Shown here piece after piece: positions 8,141-25,310 of a stretch of DNA of 32,000 nucleotides. Made by a program: the position numbers and the translations under genes. Below the pieces are notes generated by a model, which was not told the DNA's origin, made no database searches, and worked only from the letters and a program-made list of their open reading frames with translations. Positions within the stretch are counted from its first letter, which is position 1. Each line of letters starts with the position of its first letter. Origin of the DNA: Pasteurella multocida (GTDB lineage: Bacteria; Pseudomonadota; Gammaproteobacteria; Enterobacterales; Pasteurellaceae); NCBI RefSeq assembly GCF_900187275.1, contig NZ_LT906458.1, positions 2,220,001 to 2,252,000 of the forward strand, read 5' to 3'.

Positions 8141-8184
8141 AAAAAATAAACCGCACTTTCGGTAGGCGAAGAAAAAGTGCGGTG
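8141..8184 (-). terminator. his operon terminator formed by an inverted USS pair
   Basis: On the minus-strand RNA, ACCGCACTTT and AAAGTGCGGT form a 10-bp stem with a 14-nt loop, followed by TTATTTTTT. The USS cores are at 8150-8158 and 8175-8183. It starts 8 nt after the hisI stop. Confidence 0.75.
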
Positions 8185-8809: not shown

Positions 8810-9187
8810 TTAATTTCGTAGTTCTAAGTTACGTTTAACTCTCATTATTTGTTGTATAAACGCATCATTCAACCTTTCTTTAGTTAATTGATTTTTAGGG
8901 GTGCTTGCCCATCGATAGATTTGTTCTATACTCCCGTAGCCTCTACCAAATATTTTGGCGAATTTAAGACAATTTTTTTTCGTTGCAGGTAAAGAAAGGA
9001 TCAGTTCTAATTGATGATCATTCCATGGCTGACCTTTATTAACTGGAGTTCTGTCCGTTTTATCTTTTTCTATCTCATACTCTGTTAGTATTTTTTTGAT
9101 AAAATGAATTTTTTCATCATAATTTAAGTTATCAATATTATTACTAAGTAATTCTATAAAACTATTTTTGAATTCAGACTTTTTCAT
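8810..9187 (-). CDS. hypothetical 125-aa protein inserted between hisF and hisI; possible Myb/SANT-like three-helix DNA-binding C-terminus
   Basis: ATG 9187 is preceded by TAAGGT. It is AT-rich: hand counts on 60-nt lines give 17-40% G+C, mostly about 30%. W55/F76/W93 spacing within PWNDHQLELILSL...FAKIFGRGYGSIEQIYRW resembles a Myb-type repeat. I recognise no family. Confidence 0.6.
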   Translation of the reverse strand: MKKSEFKNSFIELLSNNIDNLNYDEKIHFIKKILTEYEIEKDKTDRTPVNKGQPWNDHQLELILSLPATKKNCLKFAKIFGRGYGSIEQIYRWASTPKNQLTKERLNDAFIQQIMRVKRNLELRN

Positions 9188-10767: not shown

Positions 10768-10768
<1 letters not shown>

Positions 10769-11358
10769 TATTTAATGTTTTCCACAAAATTACGCAAAAA
10801 TAACGCGCCTGCTTTGCCTGAACGCTCAGGGTGGAATTGTGCACCATAAAAATTGTTATGTTGGATTACTGCAGAAAATGGCACGCCATAGTCGCAGGTG
10901 GCGACAGTGTGTGGATTGGGCAACACGCCGTAGCTGTGCACAAAATAGAAATAGCTGTCTTGCTCAATGCCTGCAAATAACGGGTGATCGGCGACATAAT
11001 GCACCTTATTCCAGCCCATATGCGGTAATGGCAACTGACAATCCGGTAATTTTTCGGTTTTGCCTGACATCAGTTTTAATAAGTCCAAATTGCCTTCTTC
11101 GGAATAGTCGGTCATTAATTGCATTCCCAAACAAATCCCCAAAACAGGTTGAGTTAGGCTTTGGATAACCTCAATTAAGCCTAAATCCGCCAAATTTTGC
11201 ATCGCTGCTTTTGCCGTTCCCACACCAGGTAAAATCAACTTGTCGGTGGATTGGATTTGTTCGATATTATCGGTAATTTCTGCGCGATACCCTAAGCGGT
11301 CAAAAGCAAATTTGACGGAAGAAAGGTTAGCACAGCGGGTGTTGATGATGGTGATCAT
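10768..11358 (-). CDS. hisH: imidazole glycerol phosphate synthase, glutamine amidotransferase subunit
   Basis: 196 aa. Class-I GATase triad context (GICLGMQ ... FHPERS). Confidence 0.95.
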
Positions 11359-12410
11359 TTGGAGTTTTTCTCCTTAAAATAGTCATATTTTAAGATTTTG
11401 AATGCATTATAATTTTTAGCTCTTACTGAAGCTAAGTTATGAGAAAAAGTTTCTTCCCTTTTAGTATTTATTTCTGCCTTTTGTTTTTCATTCAATGAAT
11501 TCCACCATACGGGAGAAAAAAAAGTATTTTCAAAGAATGAGAATACAAATCTAACTAAAGAATCTTCCTTTTTTTTATTTGTTCTTATATTTAAGAAAGA
11601 CTTGATAAAGTTATAGTAGAATTCATTTGCATCATCTTTAACCCACGAGAATATAATATAACCCCTGTTACTAGAGTTTATAATATTAAAAAACATCTGA
11701 TGAATTCTTATGGATGAGTTTTTTAGATCAAAAATTTTCTCATTAGAAAATGAAATGTTTGGAATAAATGTCCCACTAGATAAAATCTGAGCAGGAGAAG
11801 ATAGTTCAATTATAAATGACTCTAGTCTATTGAAATCCTTAGTTTTCCACATTGTATGCATATTAGCTTGAGTATCAATTAATTCATTAAAGCCCAAATT
11901 TGCATAACTCTCAAAAATGGAAATATTTCTTTCCCAGTATTTATATTCTTCAGAGAGTTGTTTAATCAAATTACCTCCATTTAAAATGCATTCTTTTAAT
12001 CCACTATTTTTTTGATAACCTTTGGTATAAATCTCTCTACAAAGTCCTCTATATGAAAATAAAAATATTTGTTCTAGATCAGGGATGATTTCCTCATCTT
12101 CTATCCTAGAAAATAGTAATTTATCATGTTCAGAGCAAAATCCTGTAAATGTTGAAGCGTGATTTACCCCTATTTTCCTAGGCTCCCCAAGACCATTATT
12201 TTCTATTAATTTACAAAGTGATAAATCGTTTCCCATAACTTCATTTTGTTTATCCATAATTGTTGATAAAGAACTACTTTTAGATATAGTATGAGCTTTA
12301 ATAATCTTTCTACTACATTCAATATTTAATAATTCTTTAGCACTGCAATACTTCTTTTGTCTCTTCCGTTTTAGATTTTCTTCAATAGTTCCAAGAATAT
12401 TTTTTTCCAT
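11355..12410 (-). CDS. hypothetical AT-rich protein (351 aa from ATG 12410; 368 aa if TTG 12461 is used) inserted between hisB and hisH
   Basis: A long open frame in very AT-rich DNA: hand counts give 23-30% G+C per 60-nt line, against 47% in a neighbouring hisH line. Its TGA overlaps the hisH ATG (ATGA at 11358-11355). The only pattern is near the N-terminus: C-x9-C-x7-AHTISKS and, about 45 aa later, GFCSEHDKLLF. I recognise no family. Confidence 0.7.
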   Translation of the reverse strand: MEKNILGTIEENLKRKRQKKYCSAKELLNIECSRKIIKAHTISKSSSLSTIMDKQNEVMGNDLSLCKLIENNGLGEPRKIGVNHASTFTGFCSEHDKLLFSRIEDEEIIPDLEQIFLFSYRGLCREIYTKGYQKNSGLKECILNGGNLIKQLSEEYKYWERNISIFESYANLGFNELIDTQANMHTMWKTKDFNRLESFIIELSSPAQILSSGTFIPNISFSNEKIFDLKNSSIRIHQMFFNIINSSNRGYIIFSWVKDDANEFYYNFIKSFLNIRTNKKKEDSLVRFVFSFFENTFFSPVWWNSLNEKQKAEINTKREETFSHNLASVRAKNYNAFKILKYDYFKEKNSK

Positions 12411-12504
12411 TTTTATAACTTTGCCTATGGTGTAACTATCCACGTTTTTGTCAGAACTCAAACGCTTAGTCCAACTATGGATTTCAATTATCCTTAACTT
12501 TGCT

Positions 12505-12532
12505 AATTATCAAATGCCCAAGAAATTTGCAA
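12505..12532 (-). promoter_or_regulatory. candidate sigma70 promoter for the AT-rich insert ORF
   Basis: On the minus strand, TTGCAA (12532-12527) is followed by 15 nt and GATAAT (12511-12506), or by 16 nt and ATAATT. It lies about 95 nt upstream of ATG 12410. Confidence 0.35.
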
Positions 12533-12635
12533 AATTCCAGCACACTTTTGTAATTTGGTTGTAGAGATATACTACCTAAATCATTGGATACATAAAGAAT
12601 GCCCTACAGATTACATTATGTGATATTGCTTAAAA

Positions 12636-13727
12636 TTACAGTACACCCTTACTACTAGGCATTGCATTCCCTTCCACCTTAATACACTGTCTTAACGTGC
12701 GCCCAAACACTTTAAACAGGCTTTCGATTTTGTGGTGGTCGTTATCGCCTTTGGTTTTAAGGTGCAAGGTTGCCATTAAGGTATAAGCGAGAGATTGGAA
12801 AAAATGCTCGGTCATTTCGGTGCTGAAATCGCCCACTTTGTCGCGTTTAAATTTGGCTTTGAATTTGAAATACGGGCGACCAGACAGATCCATTGTACAT
12901 TCCGCCTTGCATTCGTCCATTGGTAACACAAAGCCAAAGCGTTGAATGCCTCGTTTGTCGCCAAGGGCTTGTTTTAATGCGGTGCCGAGGGCGAGAGCCG
13001 TATCTTCGACGGTGTGATGTTCGTCGATCCAAAGATCGCCTTTACAACTTACGTTCATTCGGAAACCACCGTGGGTAGCGATTTGATCGAGCATATGATC
13101 GAAAAAGCCCACGCCTGTTTTGATGTCGTTCATGCCGGTTTCATCCAACCACACTTGCACTTTAATATCGGTTTCTTTGGTAGTACGTACTACTTCAGCA
13201 TAGCGTGGTTTACGATCAACAAGTGCGGTCTGTTTTGGCAACAATTTTTCCACAATCAGATCCCAATTGAGCTTTTCACGATCATATTGCAAGGCACGAA
13301 TACCGAGATTTTCTGCCAGTTGCACGTCAGTGGCACGATCACCAATCACAAAGCTGGTGGCAGGGTCGAACAATTTTTTATCAATGTATTTTTTCAATAA
13401 TTTAATTTTCGGCTTACGGCAATCGCATTCGTCTTCAGGTTTGTGAGGGCAAATTAACACCTCATCAAACTCGATACCTTGTGATTTAAATAACGCCATC
13501 ATCGTATTGTGCGGTTTATCAAAATTTTCCTGTGGGAAAGATGCCGTGCCTAGCCCGTCTTGGTTACTGACCATTACGAAACGGTAATAGGGTTTGAGCT
13601 TTAATAACGCGGGGATAACATTCGGCTCAAATTGTAATTTTTCTAAACTGTCGATTTGAAAATCGGTTTTTGGTTCATCAATTAAGGTACCGTCACGGTC
13701 GATAAAAAGAATGGCTTGTTGTGTCAT
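12636..13727 (-). CDS. hisB: bifunctional histidinol-phosphatase / imidazoleglycerol-phosphate dehydratase
   Basis: 363 aa from ATG 13727 ([16 protein letters not shown], the HAD DxDGT motif), with an AGGA SD upstream. The IGPD half contains ...[13 protein letters not shown]... and ...[13 protein letters not shown]. Confidence 0.95.
13221..13229 (+). repeat. USS core inside hisB
   Basis: Exact AAGTGCGGT. Confidence 0.9.
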
Positions 13728-13776: not shown

Positions 13777-15844
<2,068 letters not shown>

Positions 15845-17193: not shown

Positions 17194-17817
17194 TTACTCA
17201 ATCGGGTCACTGATTTTGCCAGTTAAAAAGTCAAGATTACGCGTGATTTTCTCAATCTCCCAATCCCACCATTTTAATGCTAATAATTGTTCAATTTTTT
17301 CAGGTGAGAAACGTTTTCTAATCACGCGAGCGGGATTTCCTGCGACAATCGCATAAGGTGGCACATTCTTGGTGACAACCGAATTTGTGCCAATGATCGC
17401 GCCATCGCCAATTTTTACGCCTGGCATAATCGTGGCGTTATAGCCAATCCAAACGTCATTCCCAATAACCGTATCCCCTTTGCTCGATAATTCGGCTTTC
17501 TCCGGTAACGCTTTTGCCCATTCATAACCAAAAATCCCAAATGGGTAAGTGGAGATGGCATTCATTTGATGATTGGCGCCATTCATAATAAATTTCACAT
17601 CCGATCCAATCATGCAAAATTTACCGATGATCAATTTATCGCCTAAAAAGTCAAAATGGTATTTCACATTTTTCTCAAAATTTTCCACATTCTCTGCATC
17701 ATCGTAGTAGGTAAAATCCCCCACAATAATATTAGGATGACGAACTAAGTTTTTTAAAAAGCACAGTCGGTGATAATGTTTGATAGGGAAAATCTGATCT
17801 TTATCAGGAAATCGCAT
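17194..17817 (-). CDS. xenobiotic (hexapeptide-repeat) acetyltransferase of the Vat / streptogramin A acetyltransferase type
   Basis: 207 aa. It is collinear with Vat(D)/SatA-type enzymes as I recall them: ...VGDFTYYDD..., [71 protein letters not shown]....GNPA..I..RF......LL..KWWDW. Confidence 0.8.
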
Positions 17818-19000: not shown

Positions 19001-19037
19001 AATTCTTATCCTAGTAGATGTTGTTAATTTTAGTGAT

Positions 19038-19070
19038 AAAAAAACCTCTCGAAATGGCTTCCGAGAGGTT
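19038..19070 (-). terminator. his attenuator terminator
   Basis: The minus-strand RNA AACCUCUCG-GAAGCCAUUU-CGAGAGGUU is followed by a U run that continues the stem. It lies between hisL and hisG, 38 nt upstream of the hisG ATG. Confidence 0.85.
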
Positions 19071-19145
19071 TATATTGTTCGTCATTTTATCGCACACTCG
19101 GAAGATTTGTTATCTTCCAAGCATCACAAAATACCCGAAAGATAA
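19071..19145 (-). promoter_or_regulatory. his leader alternative (anti-terminator / pause) structures
   Basis: Hairpin GGAAGAU-AACAA-AUCUUCC at 19118-19100. The CUUCCGAG segment (19104-19097) is complementary to CUCGGAAG in the 5' arm of the terminator (19065-19058). GUGAUG is complementary to the CAUCAC His codons. Confidence 0.7.
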
Positions 19146-19187
19146 TCAGGGTAGATGGTGATGATGAGTCATGCGAGTAAAAATCAT
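19146..19187 (-). CDS. hisL: his operon leader peptide (13 aa, MIFTRMTHHHHLP)
   Basis: ATG ATT TTT ACT CGC ATG ACT CAT CAT CAC CAT CTA CCC TGA, with an AAGGA SD 7 nt upstream. It has four consecutive His codons and is followed by the attenuator structures. Confidence 0.85.
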   Translation of the reverse strand: MIFTRMTHHHHLP

Positions 19188-25277: not shown

Positions 25278-25310
25278 AGAAAAAAGTGCGGTAAATTTTA
25301 CCGCACTTTT
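25278..25310 (-). terminator. tonB terminator formed by an inverted USS pair
   Basis: AAAAGTGCGGTAAA pairs with TTTACCGCACTTTT as a near-perfect hairpin, immediately after the tonB stop and followed by a T run. The USS cores are at 25284-25292 and 25300-25308. Confidence 0.8.

Follow-up and report, generated by a model that had tools for sequence, protein, structure and literature searches.

A candidate phage-defence gene of the Rugutis family in a variable slot of the Pasteurella multocida histidine operon

Introduction

Why is the histidine (his) operon of Pasteurella multocida interrupted by a single AT-rich gene whose stop codon overlaps the start of the next biosynthetic gene? The gene in question, referred to here as the cassette, lies between hisB and hisH in a window of 32,000 nucleotides (nt), the whole stretch of DNA that was analysed (contig NZ_LT906458.1 of assembly GCF_900187275.1, positions 2,220,001 to 2,252,000); all coordinates below are those of the window. 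A first-pass annotation made from the sequence could place the protein in no family and offered two options, a free-standing homing endonuclease or a single-gene defence or abortive-infection (Abi) module. The second option is supported by homology of the cassette protein to the lactococcal phage-defence protein Rugutis and by the defence-type genes that occupy the same slot in relatives. We consider it probable that the cassette is a functional P. multocida gene encoding a Rugutis-family protein that lacks the SEC-C motif, that this protein provides a single-protein anti-phage defence of the Abi type, and that the gene is an exchangeable cassette co-transcribed with the his operon. We infer the defence function in P. 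multocida, its trigger, the metal centre, the translational coupling to hisH and the physical route of exchange.

The family itself has already been described; what is added is the architecture without SEC-C, a fold without a solved relative and a hotspot that holds 20 families. With this assignment, a gene labelled only 'cytoplasmic protein' and present in essentially all P. multocida genomes acquires a name and a function that can be tested; the species is important as a veterinary pathogen, and phage therapy against it is being considered. The assignment would also extend the Rugutis family to Gram-negative hosts, and suggests that the conserved core can do without the SEC-C motif.

Homology to Rugutis

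The Pfam, PADLOC 2.0, NCBIfam and PHROGs profiles returned nothing for the cassette protein at E<=10. An indexed sequence search gave 57 related clusters, and an exhaustive HMMER search gave 2,572 representative clusters at E<=1e-3, including 1,303 at E<=1e-10. The initial description of the gene as an orphan is thereby overturned. The nearest relatives, known in databases only as 'cytoplasmic protein', are found in Actinobacillus pleuropneumoniae (79% identity), Mannheimia haemolytica (59%), Bisgaard Taxon 45 (50%) and Exercitatus varius (45%). Family members of lower identity (30-40%; ~370 amino acids (aa)) bear an N-terminal SEC-C zinc motif (PF02810), which is present in 75 of the 86 aligned family members. 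The cassette protein has no PF02810 match at E<=10, and the Pasteurellaceae clade begins after the motif in the alignment. SEC-C is absent from all 8 Pasteurellaceae-type sequences, which form an exclusive clade, and likewise from a few members outside the Pasteurellaceae; no remnant of it is present in any frame of the leader that precedes the cassette.

Distant relatives carry database names of the SEC-C/YecA/YchJ type, and the likeness to such proteins consists of the ~20-residue zinc-binding motif. The motif is N-terminal in these relatives and missing from the cassette protein, and the ~310-aa core is unrelated to YecA or SecA. No Pfam model covers this core, and a family-profile search of PDB sequences matched only the SEC-C peptide of distant members.

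A tblastn search of a plasmid collection with a family member found SEC-C proteins on lactococcal dairy plasmids. One of these is pUCCL633A of strain UCCL633, whose SEC-C coding sequence (CDS) encodes exactly 359 aa; this protein is equated with Rugutis because strain, plasmid, length and motif agree. The cassette protein aligns with it by BLASTP at E=7e-29 (26% identity over 308 aa), and hhalign of the family profile against it gave a probability of 100% and E=6.3e-46 over 323 columns; every invariant motif is common to both. Judged by these alignments, the cassette protein is an intact, full-length homologue of Rugutis, in a variant without SEC-C. PADLOC 2.0 (2023) is silent because its release predates Rugutis. 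The first-pass annotation had counted a confident match to a housekeeping or already characterised family as evidence against its reading; this has in part come about, the match to Rugutis being a confident one to a described family.

Rugutis is encoded by a single gene, pUCCL633_059, on the Lactococcus plasmid pUCCL633A, and both phage c2 and skunaviruses are targets of its protection (Grafakou et al., NAR 2024, PMC11381338). It acts after injection of the phage DNA with an Abi-like phenotype (PMC11381338). Escape mutants of phage c2 map to the ATPase domain of the large terminase (TerL) (PNAS 2025, PMC12184496); expression of c2 TerL is more toxic in cells that carry Rugutis, and mutated TerL is still toxic (PMC12184496). 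The two proteins are homologous over a ~320-aa core and have the C…C…AH[TS]I, TFTGFCxxHD and EN…W motifs in common; both are encoded by stand-alone single genes on mobile or variable DNA, and both give confident AlphaFold models without a relative in the PDB. They differ in that the cassette protein is only 26% identical to Rugutis and lacks SEC-C, the sole recognised domain of the latter. The cassette is chromosomal and sits in a biosynthetic operon with its stop fused to hisH, whereas Rugutis is located on a plasmid between insertion sequence (IS) elements. The host of the cassette is a Gram-negative member of the Pasteurellaceae.

Conserved residues and predicted fold

The 86-sequence alignment contains eight invariant columns, C22, C32, H40, C92, H95, D96, F100 and R121, which are pinpointed for mutagenesis. 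Most of them fall in two N-terminal motifs, and a third motif lies near the C-terminus:

12291..12347, minus strand: motif I, C22-x9-C32-x7-H40 (…YCSAKELLNIECSRKIIKAH…), all three residues invariant; kept in Rugutis with C-x7-C spacing
12099..12158, minus strand: motif II, A85-S-T-F-T-G-F-C92-S-E-H95-D96-…-F100-…-E104, a beta strand leading into a helix N-terminus
11502..11531, minus strand: C-terminal motif FENTFFSPVWW, with E294, N295, W302 and W303 nearly invariant

The N-terminal Cys/His landmarks recognised in the first-pass annotation are real and coincide with the family-invariant residues. Its statement that the remainder of the protein has no motif does not hold, as the C-terminal part has the conserved FENxxxSPxWW (E294, N295, W302, W303). 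The cluster of C22/C32/H40 and C92-x2-H95-D96 looks like a metal or active centre, and the effector chemistry probably depends on it.

AlphaFold2 with the family alignment produced a model with pLDDT 93.5 and pTM 0.92. Foldseek with the full model found nothing convincing in the PDB (best E=0.12, TM 0.15) or in BFVD. Residues 16-140, which include all invariant Cys, His and Asp residues, were also modelled separately (pLDDT 91.7), and no PDB match was found for this model either (best E=1.7). In these models the fold is confidently predicted and is without a relative among solved structures.

The impression of an HNH-like (beta-beta-alpha-Me) nuclease finds no support, since no nuclease profile matched at E<=10 and Foldseek found no match for the whole or the N-terminal model. 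The profiles compared comprised HNH, GIY-YIG, LAGLIDADG and PD-(D/E)xK families; as a positive control, an HNH_5 cassette in the same slot of [Haemophilus] felis was detected at E=8e-18. The cassette protein does resemble HNH/His-Me finger nucleases in its Cys/His-rich N-terminal region and in a beta-hairpin followed by a helix that bears His-Asp. It is unlike them in having no profile or fold match, no usual catalytic His ending the first strand and no homing-site signature.

Gene boundaries and the junction with hisH

The his operon is on the minus strand, and 1,277 nt separate the hisB stop (12636-12638) from the hisH ATG (11358-11356). This gap holds a single co-oriented open reading frame (ORF), 11355..12461, which would encode 368 aa from a TTG or 351 aa from ATG 12410. 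The G+C content of the cassette ORF is 27.3%, versus 43.5% for hisH and 43.3% for hisB. The gap, its AT-richness, the long co-oriented ORF and the overlap with hisH described in the first-pass annotation were all confirmed in coordinates and anatomy. The features of the locus are:

12636..13727, minus strand: hisB, upstream boundary gene of the slot
12411..12635, minus strand: AT-rich untranslated leader of 225 nt from the hisB stop to ATG 12410, containing the less likely start TTG 12461
11355..12410, minus strand: CDS of the Rugutis-family protein without SEC-C, 351 aa and stop, 27% GC
11370..11375, minus strand: AAGGAG, a Shine-Dalgarno-like hexamer for hisH inside the final codons of the cassette; not conserved where the slot holds another cassette
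11355..11358, minus strand: ATGA overlap of the cassette stop with the hisH start
10768..11358, minus strand: hisH, downstream boundary gene of the slot

ATG 12410, already preferred in the first-pass annotation, is probably the start, because DNA similarity to the A. pleuropneumoniae copy begins at 12419, which is 9 nt upstream of this ATG, and because the 351-aa form is called on 673 contigs in public annotation versus 44 for the 368-aa form; a 362-aa form is called on 20. The TGA of the cassette (11357-11355) overlaps the hisH ATG as ATGA, and the same arrangement is seen in A. pleuropneumoniae and in 25 of 25 informative P. multocida contigs. This overlap suggests translational coupling of hisH to the cassette. 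The last codons had been taken for the native ribosome-binding region of hisH; this is not borne out, as the cassette tail is homologous to its counterpart in A. pleuropneumoniae, and wherever the slot holds another cassette the sequence is unrelated right up to hisH.

The slot across the Pasteurellaceae

The hisB-hisH junction was surveyed with HisH as probe in one genome per species. Species close to P. multocida (HisH 84-95% identical) do not have the cassette gene; their hisB-hisH gaps are AT-rich and 0.5-2 kb long, and each contains a different ORF that is co-oriented with the operon. Clustering placed 30 cassette ORFs from ~29 Pasteurellaceae loci in 20 unrelated families, of which the Rugutis-like family is the most frequent occupant (5 loci). 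Since 20 unrelated families use the slot, its occupancy is not driven by a site specificity of the cassette protein; together with the missing nuclease profile and fold match, this leaves the homing-endonuclease option unsupported. All five Pasteurellaceae homologues with known context are directly upstream of hisH, and in Exercitatus this is so though hisB is not the upstream neighbour. The first-pass annotation had weighed the possibility of homologues that always sit at this junction with host-like composition; position in the Pasteurellaceae is indeed constant beside hisH, while the composition is foreign.

Many occupants of the slot resemble defence genes. Those identified include PDC-S02/YhcG (E=1e-146), PDC-S18 (E=9e-134), a protein annotated as putative AbiC, a HEPN protein of the RiboL-PSP type and an endonuclease of the HNH_5 family. 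An acyltransferase (Acyl_transf_3) and a GNAT protein also occur, and several occupants have no detectable relatives. The slots of Pasteurella oralis and Pasteurellaceae bacterium 15-036681 contain related proteins of 354 and 362 aa with C-terminal transmembrane helices and no Pfam or PADLOC match. Further unassigned cassettes comprise a 227-aa protein (locus L029), a protein with a weak CorA-like match (L015/L034) and those of loci L032, L036 and L040. The unassigned cassettes are candidate novel defence or cargo genes. A single housekeeping-operon junction with ~20 cargo families thus offers a comparative resource, in which some occupants are candidate new defence systems.

Cassettes can also be lost. 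Avibacterium volantium has a near-empty slot of 129 nt (L033 3872-4001) that keeps the last ~45 nt of the YhcG/PDC-S02 cassette present in the slots of Avibacterium gallinarum and Avibacterium paragallinarum; this slot is a deletion scar. Interspecies similarity ends at the hisB stop codon and resumes approximately three codons into hisH. No conserved junction, repeat, att or palindromic attC-like element was found at the slot junctions across species. An integron gene cassette was considered and rejected, there being no attC-like junction element and no integrase in the operon.

Rousset et al. in 2022 reportedly described defence hotspots of P2-like prophages and satellites, where interchangeable, AT-rich, mostly single-gene defence systems lie between conserved genes. 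The hisB-hisH slot is similar in its fixed position, conserved flanks and interchangeable AT-rich cargo, and a SEC-C member of the Rugutis family occurs in a P2-like Providencia prophage. The difference is that the conserved frame here is a housekeeping amino-acid operon and not a mobile element.

Distribution of the wider family

Outside the Pasteurellaceae the family has the distribution of a mobile accessory gene. The SEC-C-bearing relative in Providencia adjoins the integrase of the P2-like prophage, another relative is located in a variable Cronobacter island, and a Herbaspirillum relative lies downstream of gyrB, beside transposases and a HEPN gene. Relatives are present on 27 plasmids and on 57 IMG/VR contigs. 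On viral contigs, 20 of 48 relatives are within 1.5 kb of a contig end, versus 6.8 expected. The search of phage records found a relative encoded only in two unannotated Listeria phage records. There is no conserved partner gene, as the neighbours differ with the context (his genes, prophage integrase, IS elements, gyrB, HTH/NYN). We also note that in all four Herbaspirillum contexts the family member is followed, at a distance of ~140 nt, by a 207-aa ORF without Pfam match, which may be a partner gene specific to this lineage or may belong to the same inserted element.

Horizontal transfer and selection

The cassette tree conflicts with the host tree. Protein identities to P. multocida are as follows:

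A. pleuropneumoniae: cassette 79%, HisH 71%, HisB 89%
Bisgaard Taxon 45: cassette 50%, HisH 90%, HisB 96%

Nei-Gojobori dS between P. multocida and A. pleuropneumoniae is 0.405 for the cassette, 2.9 for hisH and 1.6 for hisB. With a dS of 0.405 versus 1.6-2.9 in the flanking genes, the cassette is much younger than its flanks, which shows horizontal transfer into the same slot. At this unsaturated dS the dN/dS of the cassette is 0.285, which places it under purifying selection; the his genes have values of 0.05-0.08. All five cassette copies have 26-28% G+C, and the his genes of their hosts have 43-53%.

A plausible route of exchange is that of the minimal mobile element (MME), in which DNA taken up by transformation is incorporated through homologous recombination within the genes on either side (Saunders & Snyder 2002; Snyder et al. 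2007, cited and defined in PMC3082526). The route is plausible because the Pasteurellaceae are naturally transformable and rich in uptake signal sequences (USS); the window holds 19 of the Hin type. As in the MMEs of Neisseria, conserved flanking genes have differing whole-gene cassettes between them across genomes, no integrase, transposase, repeats or att sites accompany the cassette, and the host is naturally transformable and USS-rich. In contrast to MMEs, the slot varies between species and is fixed within P. multocida, and the cassette lies in an operon with its stop fused to the next gene. Diagnostic donor tracts, which are a mark of MME flanks, were sought at the hisB end and the hisH start, and none was found; the flanks are closest to P. 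multocida relatives up to ~60 nt from the cassette.

Status in Pasteurella multocida

Exact look-up of HisH gave 25 informative P. multocida contigs, all 25 with the order hisB-ORF-hisH, and for this reason the intact gene appears to be fixed in the species. Null alleles were found on <10 contigs and the intact allele on ~737; the frame is thus not decaying, an outcome that the first-pass annotation had allowed for, and gene decay was rejected. Two homopolymers of the coding strand vary in length:

11569..11576, minus strand: A8; an A7 allele frameshifts (…NKKRKIL followed by a stop) in a few isolates
11516..11523, minus strand: T8; T7 and T9 in two isolates

The A8/T8 length variants occur in three isolates that are otherwise 99.8-100% identical, and they could reflect slipped-strand switching, rare null alleles or assembly error. 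Phase variation at these tracts is a weak possibility at most, given the few variant isolates and the potential for assembly error. A second null allele has a stop after K309.

Transcription context

Two features bear on transcription of the cassette:

19035..19164, minus strand: His operon leader/attenuator controlling the transcription unit of the cassette (RF00514, 74.3 bits, E=3e-10), with the attenuator hairpin at 19071-19042
12506..12533, minus strand: sigma70-like TTTGCA-N16-GATAAT, a possible cassette promoter (9/12 positions match)

Because the His leader is present and no convincing coding-strand terminator occurs between it and hisIE, the cassette is predicted to lie inside an attenuator-controlled transcription unit of ~11 kb, and expression of hisH, hisA, hisF and hisIE would require its transcription. 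The sigma70-like promoter proposed in the first-pass annotation is present as a pattern at 12533-12506, but such patterns are no more frequent than expected by chance (9 promoter-like matches in the region versus 8.9 in shuffled sequence). A structured RNA or riboswitch in the 225-nt leader was rejected, as Rfam gave no family for the leader, RNA structure is not in excess there (z=+0.62) and notable repeats are absent. The leader is not alignable with that of A. pleuropneumoniae.

Proposed function and alternative explanations

In the proposed mechanism, the gene is the current occupant of a variable slot; it would have entered or left the P. multocida lineage by horizontal transfer among Pasteurellaceae and then become fixed. 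At the least, read-through from the his promoter, which is under attenuator control, would provide transcripts of the cassette, and with the cassette stop fused to the hisH start, translation of hisH is likely coupled to it. By homology, the protein is expected to be inert until a late phage function appears, which in the case of Rugutis and c2 is the ATPase domain of TerL. Once triggered, it would stop the growth of the infected cell or kill it, and the effector action would probably proceed through the invariant cluster of C22/C32/H40 and C92-x2-H95-D96. One question that follows is why an essential biosynthetic operon should tolerate defence genes within it and fused to it.

Several observations weigh against a role in phage defence. 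The identity to Rugutis, from which defence in the Pasteurellaceae is predicted, is only 26%. The only annotated feature of Rugutis, SEC-C, is absent, so that sensing or localisation may differ. The TerL trigger is itself not fully settled for Rugutis, mutated TerL being still toxic (PMC12184496). PADLOC of 2023 does not recognise the protein, as expected from its release date. The constant position next to hisH is untypical of defence genes, and so is fixation in P. multocida, as defence genes are usually strain-variable. The clearly non-defence occupants of the slot (Acyl_transf_3, GNAT) leave the argument from neighbourhood only moderate, and, with no donor-like tract found in the flanking his genes, the route of exchange is a proposed one.

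An unlikely explanation, though one that deserves weighing, is that a protein derived from Rugutis is no longer engaged in phage defence or acts on something else. It could serve in stress-induced growth control, in anti-plasmid or anti-transformation activity, or as a toxin-like addiction factor, or the gene could be a silent passenger kept by its coupling to hisH. Such a change of role would be consistent with the separate clade formed by the 8 Pasteurellaceae-type sequences without SEC-C, with a dN/dS (0.29) several-fold more relaxed than that of the his genes (0.05-0.08), and with fixation in P. multocida, where the ATGA fusion to hisH would penalise deletion. However, all invariant core residues and the C-terminal motif are kept, purifying selection is clear, and a few members outside the Pasteurellaceae also lack SEC-C, which shows that the family can do without it. 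A silent passenger would gather null alleles, yet these are found on less than ~1-2% of contigs.

It is very unlikely that the cassette has adapted to its host as an accessory of histidine biosynthesis, or of the regulation of this pathway, with a functional link to HisH/HisF. Five of five homologues with known context are directly 5' of hisH, even in Exercitatus without hisB upstream, and the gene is translationally fused to hisH in two species and lies under the His attenuator, as such an accessory might. The operon is nevertheless retained with 19 other unrelated families in the slot and with the near-empty slot (129 nt) of A. volantium. Relatives on plasmids, prophages and islands have no his genes nearby, the GC content is 26-28% in every host, and the cassette and the his genes have conflicting phylogenies.

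A free-standing homing endonuclease or selfish nuclease that cuts the empty hisB-hisH junction and is copied in by repair can hardly be upheld: the same family does occur at the same site in several lineages, with evidence of transfer into it, as a single AT-rich gene with an invariant Cys/His cluster, but no HNH, GIY-YIG, LAGLIDADG or PD-(D/E)xK profile (E<=10) or nuclease fold likeness was found, the junctions are not conserved, the 20 unrelated families in the slot are mostly non-nucleases, distant members occupy many genomic contexts and not one target gene, and the validated relative is Abi-like.

Other insertions in the his operon

The description of the cassette as a gene inserted alone understates the context, as the his operon in the window has four interlopers including the cassette. 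The other three are:

8810-9187, minus strand: 125-aa ORF between hisF and hisIE, ~29% GC, no Pfam or PADLOC match; at the same place in other P. multocida contigs
14846-15844, minus strand: RhuM-family and Fic/DOC protein, 332 aa, between hisD and hisC
17194-17817, minus strand: hexapeptide-repeat acyltransferase, 207 aa, between hisG and hisD; its end overlaps the hisD start (17194-17210)

Bisgaard Taxon 45 has the RhuM/Fic gene at the same hisD/hisC junction, together with GFA and His_Phos_1 genes. A gene for a Y1_Tnp (IS200/RAYT-type) transposase lies between hisC and hisB in A. pleuropneumoniae (L001 4000-4440) and M. haemolytica (L005 4259-4699). In various Pasteurellaceae the hisH/hisA junction carries DUF559, Bro-N and MOSC genes and the hisF/hisI junction glyoxalase or DUF2726 genes. 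Every junction of the Pasteurellaceae his operon is permissive for insertion, and a search of a limited set of papers found no earlier description of interlopers in this operon.

A broader proposal, which we regard as quite unlikely in its full form, is that the Pasteurellaceae his operon is a multi-slot carrier of exchangeable defence cassettes, transcribed under the His attenuator and translationally welded to its essential biosynthetic genes, and that the Rugutis clade without SEC-C is bound to the slot, with a new fold, a new Cys/His metal-centre effector and an occurrence in his operons only. Were this so, expression would rise with amino-acid starvation and uncharged tRNA-His, conditions that phage infection can create, and loss of a cassette would be penalised by polarity on histidine synthesis.

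Just downstream of hisIE, at 8150-8183 of the window, lies an inverted pair of Hin-type USS (AAGTGCGGT at 8175+, its complement at 8150), which probably doubles as the operon terminator. Further USS pairs in the window are located at 25284/25300, 28460/28487 and 30933/30961.

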